A stretch of DNA of 61,615 nucleotides from assembly GCA_965541585.1 (NCBI GenBank), contig CBEUCH010000019.1, positions 1 through 61,615 on the forward strand, written 5' to 3'. The position numbers and the translations under genes are program-made. A model generated the notes under the pieces. That model was not told the origin of the DNA and did no database searches. It saw nothing but the letters and a program-made list of their open reading frames with translations. Below are positions 1 through 61,615 of this stretch, piece by piece. Within the stretch, counting starts at the first letter, position 1; every line of letters starts with the position of its first letter. Source of the DNA: an uncultured bacterium. Its GTDB lineage: Bacteria > Zixibacteria > MSB-5A5 > UBA10806.

Positions 1-188
1 TTCACTTTTATTTTTGTCTCGTTCTCGTCAGCGGCCCGGTGGTTAATTCCGCTTGTAGCGGAACTCTGCCAGCTGAGCTACCGAGGAGTGTTTTTCATTC
101 AATTTTATTCTTGTCTCGTTCTCACAAGCAGCCCGGTGGTTAATTCCGCTTGCAGCGGAACTCTGCCAGCTGAGCTACCGAGGAGTGT
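1..188 (-). repeat. Two tandem 97-bp-period copies of a tRNA-Asn-derived sequence (array may continue left of the window)
   Basis: Positions 1-91 and 98-188 align with 7 mismatches. The minus strand reads TCCTCGG-TA-GCTC-AGCTGGCA-GAG (tRNA 5' acceptor strand plus D arm), then hairpin TTCCGCT-RCA-AGCGGAA, then TTAA-CCACC-GGGCY-GCT. No T-loop or 3' acceptor strand follows. Confidence 0.85.
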
Positions 189-204
189 AATAAATCTATC
201 GGTA

Positions 205-236
205 AACAATGAAATTCGTTTAGCAGATGTTGTCAA
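205..236 (-). promoter_or_regulatory. Possible sigma70 promoter reading into the tRNA-like repeats
   Basis: TTGACA on the minus strand (236-231) with a weak -10 (TTCATT/CATTGT) 17-19 nt downstream, about 25 nt before the tRNA-like 5' end at 184. Confidence 0.4.
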
Positions 237-260
237 GGCAAATGTGGGCTGTTCCCGGAC

Positions 261-803
261 CTATGACATCCAGTCCTCGGGATCGACTCCCAGGCCGTCG
301 GCGATCCGGTTCATATAATTGAAATAGGCGATCACCTCCACGGCGTCGGTGACCCCGCGATCGTCGAGGCCGGAGGATTTCAACCGGTCAATGTCCGTCT
401 GCTCGATTGACCATGTTTCGGATGTCAATTTCTCGGCGAACCCGCAGAGCGCCTTATCCAGATTCGATAAGTCGGCTTTCCTCCAATCAGTCTTGACCGC
501 CAGGGCCAAATCATCGTCTTTACATTCCGACCGAAACTCGACCGCATGCGCTTCCACTCAGTAATGACATTGGTTGGCTTTGGAGACGACCACCGCCATC
601 ATCTCCCTCTGGGCGCGGGAGAGAGGTGATTCTCCGTACATGACATCGCGGTAAAACTTTATGGATGACTCCAGGACCTTCGGATTATGCCCCTGAACGC
701 TGACTACATTGGCTACGCTGCCGGCACGTTCTATAGCGGCGTCATATTGCTTTTTTAAGAAACCGTCGGCCTCATCCGGCCCGATAACTCTTATATATGC
801 CAA
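261..803 (-). CDS. AhpD/carboxymuconolactone-decarboxylase-family peroxidase, probable selenoprotein (CHYU, Sec at TGA 560-558), 180 aa
   Basis: ORFs 558..803 and 261..557 abut in frame across a single TGA, giving ...SKANQC-H-Y-U-VEAH, the AhpD CxxC motif with Sec as second residue. Both halves look AhpD-like (LSRAQREMMAVVVS; AYFNYMNRIADGLG). RBS GGAGG lies upstream. Confidence 0.9.
523..548 (-). promoter_or_regulatory. Putative bacterial SECIS element of the AhpD-like gene
   Basis: Stem CGGTCGA/TCGGTCG (two G-U pairs) with a GTT loop starts 13 nt after the UGA, with a lower CAT/ATG pairing. Confidence 0.65.
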
Positions 804-60103: not shown

Positions 60104-61615
60104 ATGAGATTTCAAACAATCTTTGTAATTATCGTGCTGGTTTTTCTGGCGGCAACAGCCTTTGCCTTTGAGCCATTATTTCATGCCAGGATCGACTACG
60201 GGGTCGGGGACGATCCTACTTCAGTTTTCGCGGTTGACCTCGATGGCGACGGCGACGATGACTTAGCCGTGGCTAATAATGGCTCCGACAATGTCTCAGT
60301 CCTTCTGAATAATGGTGACGGGACATTTCAGGTGGCGGTTAATTACACGGCCGGGAGTGAACCGGTTTCAGTTTTCGCGGTTGACCTCGATGGCGACGGC
60401 GATAATGATCTGGCCGTGGCTAATTTGAGTTCCGACAATGTCTCAGTCCTTCTGAATAACGGTGACGGGATGTTCCAGCAGGCGGTTAATTACGGGGTTG
60501 GGGATCTTCCTCGTTCAGTTTTCGCGGTTGACCTCGATGGCGATGGCGATAATGACCTGGCCGTGGCTAATGGTTGGCCCGACAATGTCTCGGTCCTTCT
60601 GAATAACGGTGATGGGACATTTCAGCAGGCGTTAAATTATGGGGCCGGGGATATTCCTCGTTCAGTTTTCGCGGTTGACCTCGATGGCGATGGCGACAAT
60701 GACCTGGCCGTGGCTAATGATGGTGGCTATTTCGGCCACGGCAATGTCTCAATCCTTCTGAATAACGGTGACGGGACATTTCAGACGGCGGTTGATTACG
60801 GCGCCGTCGATCATCCTCGTTCAGTTTTCGCGGTTGATCTCGATGGCGATGGCGACAATGACTTGGCCGTGGCTAATGTAGGAACAGATCCAGAGAATCC
60901 AGGTTACGTATCGATTTTTCTGAATAACGGTGACGCGATATTCCGGCAGGTGGCTAATTACGGGGCCGGGGATACACCTGCTTCAGTTTTCGCGGTTGAC
61001 CTCGATGGCGATGGCGACAATGACCTGGCCGTAGCTAATAGTGGTGGCGATGAAGGCTACGGCAATGTCTCAATCCTTCGGAATAACGGTGACGGGACAT
61101 TTCAGGAGGCGGTTAGCTGCGAAGTTGGGGGCAGTTCTGTTTCAGTTTTCGCGGTTGATCTCGACGGCGACGGCGACAATGACCTGGCCGTGGCAAATGA
61201 GTATTCCCACAATGTCTCAGTCTTTCTGAACAACGGTGACGGGACATTTCAGGAGGCGGTTAATTACGGGGCCGGGGATTATCCTGTTTCAGTTTTCGCG
61301 GTCGACCTCGATGGCGATGGCGACAATGACCTGGCCGTGGCTAATTTGGATTCCGACGATGTCTCAGTCCTTCTGAATAACGGTGACGGGACATTTCAGG
61401 AGGCGGTTAATTATGGGGCCGGGGATAATCCTATATCAGTTTTCGCCGCTGATCTCGATAGCGACGGCGACAATGACCTAACCGTGGCTAATAATTGGTC
61501 CGACAATGTCTCAGTTCTTCTGAATAACGGTGACGGGACATTTCCGGCGGCGGTTAATTACGGGGCCGGGGATGCGCCTTTCTCAGTTTTCGCGGTTGAC
61601 CTCGATGGCGACGGC
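60104..61615 (+). CDS. Secreted FG-GAP/VCBS tandem-repeat protein, partial (open to the window end, absent from the ORF track)
   Basis: ATG 60104 after GGGGGG, signal peptide MRFQTIFVIIVLVFLAATAFA, then repeats SVFAVDLDGDGDNDLAVAN...NVSVLLNNGDGTF..AVNY. Confidence 0.9.
   Translation, partial: MRFQTIFVIIVLVFLAATAFAFEPLFHARIDYGVGDDPTSVFAVDLDGDGDDDLAVANNGSDNVSVLLNNGDGTFQVAVNYTAGSEPVSVFAVDLDGDGDNDLAVANLSSDNVSVLLNNGDGMFQQAVNYGVGDLPRSVFAVDLDGDGDNDLAVANGWPDNVSVLLNNGDGTFQQALNYGAGDIPRSVFAVDLDGDGDNDLAVANDGGYFGHGNVSILLNNGDGTFQTAVDYGAVDHPRSVFAVDLDGDGDNDLAVANVGTDPENPGYVSIFLNNGDAIFRQVANYGAGDTPASVFAVDLDGDGDNDLAVANSGGDEGYGNVSILRNNGDGTFQEAVSCEVGGSSVSVFAVDLDGDGDNDLAVANEYSHNVSVFLNNGDGTFQEAVNYGAGDYPVSVFAVDLDGDGDNDLAVANLDSDDVSVLLNNGDGTFQEAVNYGAGDNPISVFAADLDSDGDNDLTVANNWSDNVSVLLNNGDGTFPAAVNYGAGDAPFSVFAVDLDGDG
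60221..61615 (+). repeat. Ten coding tandem repeat units of 147-162 bp (last one partial)
   Basis: TCAGTTTTCGC anchors at 60221, 60368, 60515, 60662, 60821, 60983, 61142, 61289, 61436 and 61583. Confidence 0.92.

Follow-up and report, generated by a model that had tools for sequence, protein, structure and literature searches.

The minus strand of positions 1 to 236 of the window (the whole stretch of DNA analysed here, 61,615 nt) carries a tandem array of tRNA-Asn remnants rewritten around a perfect palindrome. The reading to which we lean is that these units are the footprint of a small, selfish, integrase-free nuclease cassette that resides at a tRNA gene and nicks at its own hairpin. Taken as a whole, with the hairpin-nicking and SegB-like variants together, the cassette reading is likely. 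Judged from its sequence, the window most likely shows a nuclease-free footprint of the cassette. The arrangement is real, widespread and apparently unpublished, a form of hairpin-linked small GIY-YIG element specialised on tRNA genes; a description of it was not found in the literature, subscription journals and supplements lying outside the scope of the search.

If this is correct, one of the smallest kinds of selfish element, needing no integrase or transposase, has colonised essential tRNA genes in many bacteria, where it remodels tRNA loci and breaks assemblies. tRNA alleles may then be exchanged between lineages, and many small UPF0213-like GIY-YIG genes would acquire a role. The pairing of each nuclease with its own hairpin would also yield substrate predictions for sequence-specific ssDNA nucleases that may make up a second family beside Ssn.

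The array at the contig end

The window is contig C19 from its base 1, and the array therefore begins at a contig end. An earlier note, made from the letters alone, had described two minus-strand copies with a 97-nt period behind a TTGACA box, each retaining parts of a tRNA around a palindrome that stands in place of some 10 nt, with the one difference between the hairpins confined to the loop; closer analysis bears out all of this. The units start at 184 and 87 and are identical at 80 of 87 positions. Each consists of TCCTCGG-TA-GCTCAGCTGGCAGAG (tRNA nt 1-24), a 17-nt perfect palindrome substituting for the 10 nt at tRNA positions 25-34, TTAACCACCGGG, a partial 5' strand of the T-stem and an A-rich tail. 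The features of the array and of its continuation on contig C6 of the same genome (G000) are the following.

231..236, minus strand: putative -35 box TTGACA of the tRNA-Asn promoter, read from the sequence and similarly placed in relatives
184-88, minus strand: unit 1, whole
161..184, minus strand: unit 1, tRNA-Asn nt 1-24 (5' acceptor strand and D arm), TCCTCGG type, 21/24 identical to the genome's tRNA-Asn
144..160, minus strand: unit 1, 17-nt palindrome TTCCGCT-GCA-AGCGGAA in place of tRNA nt 25-34
126..143, minus strand: unit 1, tRNA nt 35 to about 52, stopping before the T-loop, 13/18 identical to tRNA-Asn
88..125, minus strand: unit 1, A-rich 'tail A', running into the next unit
87-1, minus strand: unit 2, whole extent, cut by the contig end
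64..87, minus strand: unit 2, tRNA-Asn nt 1-24, from the sequence by comparison with the genome's tRNA-Asn
47..63, minus strand: unit 2, palindrome TTCCGCT-ACA-AGCGGAA
29..46, minus strand: unit 2, tRNA nt 35 to about 52, 15/18 identical to tRNA-Asn
1..28, minus strand: unit 2, tail A, cut by the contig end
G000:C6:210718-210516, outside the window: continuation of the array, one partial and two whole units
C6 c[210441-210515]: tRNA-Asn(GTT), the only tRNA-Asn called in the genome
C6 c[210148-210399]: intact GIY-YIG gene, 83 aa, PF01541
C6, at the 3' end of the GIY-YIG gene: decayed tRNA remnant with the same kind of hairpin

The segment from nt 35 to about 52 comprises the end of the anticodon loop, the 3' strand of its stem, the variable loop and the 5' strand of the T-stem, and nt 1-24 of unit 1 occupy the position held by the tRNA 5' end in array-free relatives. 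The retained segments of the units match the genome's tRNA-Asn at 21/24 positions in the 5' part and at 13/18 and 15/18 in the 3' part; the acceptor of that tRNA is GCCTCAG, as against TCCTCGG in the window units. ARAGORN called no tRNA in the window and Rfam gave no match on the units. The units are without T-loop and 3' acceptor strand, and folding predicts no cloverleaf, which is not the make-up of a tRNA or tRNA mimic. In many relatives TTGACA precedes tRNA-Asn by a comparable distance; a -10-like TTTCAT near 214-209 on the minus strand is weak, and the window's TTGACA promoter did not pass a consensus-level promoter scan.

The array is not a product of chance, because a BLAST search of the units against the whole genome gave E 1e-54 to the end of C6 and all other matches had E 0.058 or worse. 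Among 285 genomes of the phylum, the exact pattern of tail A occurs in this genome (three times) and in G002 of the same genus (once) only, while non-exact matches, with 1-2 mismatches, appear at about the control rate. This distribution disposes of tail A as a native leader from elsewhere. A second candidate, duplication of the native leader, was also rejected: the matches in L057, L061, L093 and L063 are older, decayed upstream units, and the tails share with the native leader only a few bases before +1. Tail A might conceivably be a relic of the 3' coding end of the nuclease.

The upstream neighbour of the array, at window 261-803 on the minus strand, is a peroxidase-related (TIGR01926/AhpD-like) gene with an in-frame TGA after C-H-Y. 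It is probably a CxxU selenoprotein gene, since the two ORFs into which it is split align to profile positions 2-81 and 85-177; the genome carries a tRNA-Sec.

The tRNA-Asn gene and the nuclease beyond the array

Extension to the left had been proposed as a way to count copies and to look for an intact tRNA-Asn with a small nuclease or an integrase gene. It adds two whole units and one partial unit, at least five in all across C19 and C6, and directly beyond them come the intact tRNA-Asn and the GIY-YIG gene, which starts 42 nt downstream of the tRNA. Between the tRNA-Asn and the downstream remnant there is the GIY-YIG gene only, and no integrase.

The ends of C19 and C6 have no exact overlap, and the tail of the partial unit on C6 differs from that of unit 2 in the window. 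The join is supported because G001 (same genus; L003) and the metagenome locus L138 carry the same order on one contig, with the same upstream gene, promoter, one unit, tRNA-Asn and the start of the nuclease; the L138 nuclease is 89% identical to that on C6. Contigs from three of four public runs align on the array with variant hairpins, and none of them spans it.

The array is a mosaic. Two tail types alternate in it, and the GCCTCAG-type tRNA-Asn with its 24-nt leader tail sits between remnants of a TCCYCGG-type allele. G002, the relative that shares tail A, has a tRNA of the TCCCCGG type. Tail B, the 24 nt before the intact tRNA-Asn, is 21/24 identical to the corresponding stretch in G005, a member of a different genus; over these 24 nt the three members of G005's genus that were examined are only 16-18/24 alike among themselves. 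The 3' strand with which the downstream remnant of L138 ends is of the TCCCCGR type, yet the working tRNA there is of the GCCTCAG type. The simplest reading of these alleles would be that tRNA-Asn and its leader have been exchanged between lineages by recombination at the units, although the mosaic may instead reflect ancient retention with uneven decay.

By sequence, the C6 protein belongs to the GIY-YIG nuclease superfamily (PF01541, E 1.2e-17, 64 bits against a cut-off of 22.6), and Pfam finds no domain but GIY-YIG in it. At 83 aa and with a single domain it is within the size of Ssn proteins (less than about 100 aa). It does not qualify as a sequence relative of phage SegB, TIGR01453 scoring it at only 20.6 bits against a cut-off of 56. 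Residues Y6, Y17, G19, R27, H31 and E67, conserved in the family and assigned a catalytic role, are invariant in eight homologs. The structure model has a pLDDT of 89, and the nearest folds are UPF0213 and Slx1. The dN/dS values of about 0.09 and 0.13 against the two closest relatives point to purifying selection. No vehicle was identified, the nuclease being without a match in viral contigs, phages or plasmids, and a tblastn search of 50,697 phage records at E 1e-8 was likewise negative.

The 3' end of the nuclease gene enters a copy of the tRNA D arm, which is followed by the palindrome TYCCGC-N5-GCGGRA and then by the 3' portion of the tRNA, beginning at the 'TTAA' of the anticodon. The cassette thus described flanks one intact tRNA-Asn, and nuclease-free copies of its junction are stacked between the promoter and the tRNA gene.

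The hairpin

The comparison of hairpins is based on 86 distinct examples from 79 loci, retrieved with a pattern that allowed wobble at two stem positions. Pair 2 is C-G in 82 and T-A in 4 of them, and pair 7 is C-G in 69, T-A in 16 and C-A in one; G·T pairs, though permitted by the pattern, do not occur among the 86. There are 36 different loops. GNA loops number 17 against 5.4 expected and the reverse complements of GNA 7, with AAA loops (8) as common as any single GNA loop, but the hairpins come from related genomes, so that these counts overstate independence and the statistics are inflated. GNA triloops are reported to stabilise DNA hairpins (PMC3201870, PMC13037366).

The strict pairing, the free loops and the presence of loops in both orientations indicate a DNA palindrome and not an RNA arm, as expected of a palindrome recognised by a protein. 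Perfect pairing of a palindrome can also arise from template-switch correction, with no protein needed. The hairpin as a re-registered anticodon arm, with a stem of 5 bp and a 7-nt loop in which GCA and ACA would both be Cys anticodons, was ruled out by the 36 loops among the 86 hairpins.

Other tRNA and tmRNA loci in the same genome

The suggestion that other tRNAs might be edited in the same way proved right, for five further tRNA/tmRNA loci in the genome share the design of the array. A profile made from six proteins of this genome yields eight small GIY-YIG genes. Five of them have a called tRNA or tmRNA no more than 113 nt away (Asn, Asp twice, Gly, tmRNA), although stretches within 500 nt of a called tRNA or tmRNA make up only 1.3% of the genome. 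A sixth, at a contig end, directly adjoins a tRNA-Ser-like fragment; all six have hairpin-edited remnants. The other two, on C3 and C7, are flanked by NTS-like repeats and lie away from tRNAs.

Individual loci vary in layout. G000:C6:95130-96025 (L183) holds a tRNA-Val, two identical cassettes and an intact tRNA-Asp, each cassette being made of the 5' 28 nt of tRNA-Asp, a different hairpin (TCCCGACCT/AGGTCGGGA) and a GIY-YIG gene. At G000:C5:213767-214244 a tRNA-Gly(TCC) has a hairpin unit upstream and, downstream, a GIY-YIG gene and a remnant with two small palindromes; a stretch of the tRNA 3' end and trailer is duplicated and the contig breaks off within the array. At G000:C2:278101-278410 three tRNA-fMet units in tandem, each with the hairpin in place of part of the D arm, stand between a strong promoter-like sequence and the intact tRNA, with no adjacent nuclease gene. 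The cassette family also uses tmRNA, since at G000:C14:53525-53845 a tmRNA is followed by a GIY-YIG gene and a copy of the tmRNA 3' end with a double-hairpin insert; a second 3'-end copy lies 4 kb further on (G000:C14:57831-57927).

Two hairpin-bearing copies (GGGGACCCCGCCAAAGGCGGGGC) are located upstream of tRNA-Leu(CAA), at G000:C17:60105-60145 and 61355-61415. The two Ssn-like genes between NTS-like repeats are at G000:C3:160470-160545 and C7:98400-98870, and the loop of the C3 repeat is interrupted by a small palindrome, TCCTACGG...CTGTAGGA, that is known from tRNA remnants. A motif resembling TTGAAAAYAGAA, possibly a processing or antitermination signal, recurs in the tails before tRNA-Asn, tRNA-Asp and tRNA-fMet and in the Val-Asp spacer (G000 leaders; L002-L010). 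In the whole genome ARAGORN called no tRNA-Ile(GAT) and no tRNA-Ser(CGA). Contigs C5, C6, C19 and C23 end in tRNA arrays or cassettes, and it follows that the repeats break the assembly.

Distribution across bacteria

In GTDB species genomes, 106 stretches fitted a degenerate pattern of the junction, and 80 of them were fetched; among these 80 there is one overlapping pair, and a few duplicate the DNA of loci from the relatives. The junction-bearing records include Thermodesulfobacteriota, Nitrospirota, Zixiibacteriota, Planctomycetales, Hydrogenedentes and Acidobacteriota. Within the fetched DNA a GIY-YIG gene is present in 61/80 stretches and tRNA-Asn in 59/80, and the highest copy number is nine pattern matches in one locus (L084). 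The nuclease lies between tRNA and unit in 25 of 30 downstream units, and the entire 3' half, T arm included, survives in 16 of the 30 downstream remnants; 61 of the 63 upstream units stop at or before tRNA position 55 and have lost the T-loop. In 26 of 53 full-length nuclease genes a TAA immediately behind the hairpin serves as stop codon; of the others, 12 end sooner, in a unit or before it, 2 end later, and for 13 there is no unit within 120 nt. The 37 evaluable loci divide into 22 with nuclease and upstream unit, 10 with the nuclease only and 5 with units only, the last meaning no GIY-YIG gene within 700 nt.

A protein search of metagenomes, independent of the hairpin, gave 24 loci. Among the best nine matches eight follow a called tRNA-Asn (two near-duplicate pairs included) and the ninth stands at a contig edge, behind the 3' end of a tRNA; the remaining 15 all lack a tRNA-Asn. 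A quick tree of 93 columns groups the nucleases by tRNA isotype, with SH-aLRT support of 98 for Gly, 91 for Met and 88 for Asp. The Asn group of 59 rows has a weak support of only 76 and three Asn-labelled rows fall outside it, and transfer between phyla is therefore not proven.

The nuclease is patchily distributed among relatives, with a close match in 5 of 41 related genomes; G001 holds the start of the gene at a contig end. In a set of 30 loci from the genome and its relatives, upstream units occur at five of six loci with the nuclease, at 0-1 edits from the consensus, and at seven of 24 without it, at 0, 0, 2, 2, 3, 5 and 6 edits, the background minimum being 7. This fits decay of the units after loss of the nuclease; yet some stay intact, with intact hairpins persisting in G023, G005 and G016, where the nuclease was not found, and draft genomes may miss the gene. 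L066 and L070 have unrelated upstream contexts and an identical 45-nt tail that contains promoter-like sequence, possibly the trace of a nuclease-free unit that has moved.

Proposed mechanism and alternatives

In the mechanism that we favour, the nuclease would recognise its own palindrome as a DNA hairpin, single-stranded or extruded, and nick beside it, within sequence homologous to the tRNA. Repair by recombination with the tRNA gene, on a sister chromosome or on incoming DNA, would copy the hairpin into a tRNA copy. As tRNA-Asn is single-copy, only outcomes that keep one whole gene would survive, with the broken copy left upstream or downstream. Unequal exchange would then multiply and shuffle the units, and the conserved tRNA would serve as a homology anchor for movement between lineages. 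The earlier note had entertained the footprint of an uncharacterised palindromic mobile element that targets tRNA genes, and this proposal gains support from the tRNA-Asn and GIY-YIG gene beyond the array and from the other edited tRNA loci. A bolder version, which we regard as speculative and rather doubtful, is an integrase-free tRNA 'gene drive', in which a hairpin-guided 83-aa nickase with the tRNA gene as homology anchor spreads across phyla, nuclease-free units are mobilised as non-autonomous mini-elements and an essential tRNA is swapped between lineages. Were it true, every nuclease clade would amount to a new ssDNA enzyme with sequence specificity and a hairpin of its own.

The same cassette might instead act in the manner of SegB, making a dsDNA cut inside the intact tRNA-Asn, with break repair generating tandem duplications and the hairpin marking copies that have lost the target. 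This is unlikely, though it has a precedent: SegB, itself a GIY-YIG enzyme, cuts within tRNA genes and drives their tandem amplification (accessible text of PMC13096335). The loss of the T-loop from nearly all upstream units and the grouping of nucleases by tRNA isotype would suit such a mechanism as well. Against it, the tRNA next to a nuclease can equal that of a nuclease-free relative (G022, G019), so that it carries no change conferring resistance (limited self-cutting is, however, reported for SegB), about half of the downstream remnants retain the T arm, and the conserved stem sequence is left unexplained. SegB, moreover, shows no isotype preference in that account. An origin of the palindrome as a REP- or RPE-like micro-element in its own right, mobilised by a different enzyme, with the GIY-YIG gene as a passenger at the same hotspot, would explain why the same hairpin is joined to tRNA remnants at several places (D arm, variable loop, T-loop edge; usually with TT next) and why a second, 18-nt palindrome is found in Gly and Asn remnants and inside the Ssn-type repeat on C3. 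It is made decidedly improbable by the hairpin being built into the 3' end of the nuclease gene, by the different hairpins that go with the Asp- and Gly-linked nucleases, by the replacement of 10 nt at the anticodon where a clean insertion would be expected, and by the absence of dispersal of the Asn hairpin through this genome.

A function for the units as RNA is improbable too. Such co-transcribed D-arm/hairpin units could be tRNA decoys, or an RNA antitoxin for the nuclease. The order of promoter, repeats and nuclease recalls type III toxin-antitoxin systems; the window units, lying between promoter and tRNA, should be in the precursor transcript; an upstream unit has been retained in several genera; and the units fold better than shuffled sequences (z -2.1 to -3.4). 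A transcribed tRNA mimic or decoy, which the earlier note had also offered, fares badly: a mimic is unlikely because the units have neither T-loop nor 3' acceptor strand, vary in number and look decayed in several relatives without the nuclease. The unconstrained loop and the complete lack of G·U pairs tell against any RNA role, as do units placed upstream of promoter-like sequence (L079, L108, L066, L070, G015), the decayed first units of several arrays and the 10 of 37 loci in which the nuclease has no upstream unit, when the array of a type III system is always present. An origin of the array in misassembly, or in neutral slippage of an ordinary duplicated tRNA, deserves almost no credence. 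The array does lie at a contig break whose ends lack an exact overlap, and its copy number is only bounded, but the units differ mosaically, the same locus carries units in G001, G002 and L138, contigs of three public runs bear variant hairpins there and the junction recurs across several phyla.

Comparison with known systems

Integrative elements with a tRNA gene as attB reconstitute one complete tRNA, displacing a 5' or 3' fragment that stays behind. The cassette differs from these in having no integrase, with the nuclease gene as its only cargo, and in that a palindrome is written into the displaced fragment, which is also amplified. In sequence and fold, the nearest solved proteins are UPF0213 (PDB 1zg2, 1ywl) and Slx1 (PDB 6seh and others), at identities of no more than 34% in the fold search. 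The Slx1 entries are titled as acting on branched DNA, and Slx1 chains are multi-domain, unlike the cassette protein; a literature search found no link of UPF0213 to tRNA or to a hairpin.

The REP/RAYT and GTAG/CGTC repeats are similar in being short palindromes with a small cognate nuclease, a link drawn in the accessible text of PMC11893778, but they involve a different enzyme family and are dispersed; 'GIY-YIG' does not occur in the main text of PMC3733652, as far as that is accessible. SegB of phages T4 and T6, a free-standing GIY-YIG homing endonuclease, resembles the nuclease described here in that its gene lies beside tRNA genes. It has tRNA-derived microhomology at its own 3' end, and the reverse complement of its motif, RAWTSGAAC, reads like a T-loop (accessible text of PMC13096335, for these and the following points on SegB). 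SegB is phage-borne and indifferent to isotype, and hairpin-replaced tRNA copies are not described for it there, whereas the protein on C6 is chromosomal, linked to an isotype and without a match in phage collections.

Ssn (SsnA, CDD cd10448, with NTS/SRM repeats) is the other close parallel, again a small single-domain GIY-YIG gene tied to a hairpin. The Ssn NTS (CGTCATTCCCGCGMAVGCGGGAATCYRG) shares the stem core TCCCGC/GCGGGA, and in both systems the loop is free and the stem sequence conserved. SsnA binds its hairpin, whose stem has TCCCGC/GCGGGA in common with the one found here, tolerates changes in the loop and cuts upstream in ssDNA (accessible text of PMC11893778, Chenal et al. 2025); the word 'tRNA' is absent from the accessible main text of that paper. 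None of the six tRNA/tmRNA loci fits the published SRM pattern, window 1-260 does not fit it either, and the hairpins described here are confined to tRNA remnants whereas Ssn repeats are dispersed in hundreds of copies. The SRM pattern does match the NTS-flanked C3 locus but misses C7. The proteins of these two loci, which stand in for cd10448, form a separate branch in the quick tree (support 99, length 1.58), that of C3 being 30% identical. On this comparison the cassette would work most like SsnA, and we would place it with neither Ssn nor SegB.
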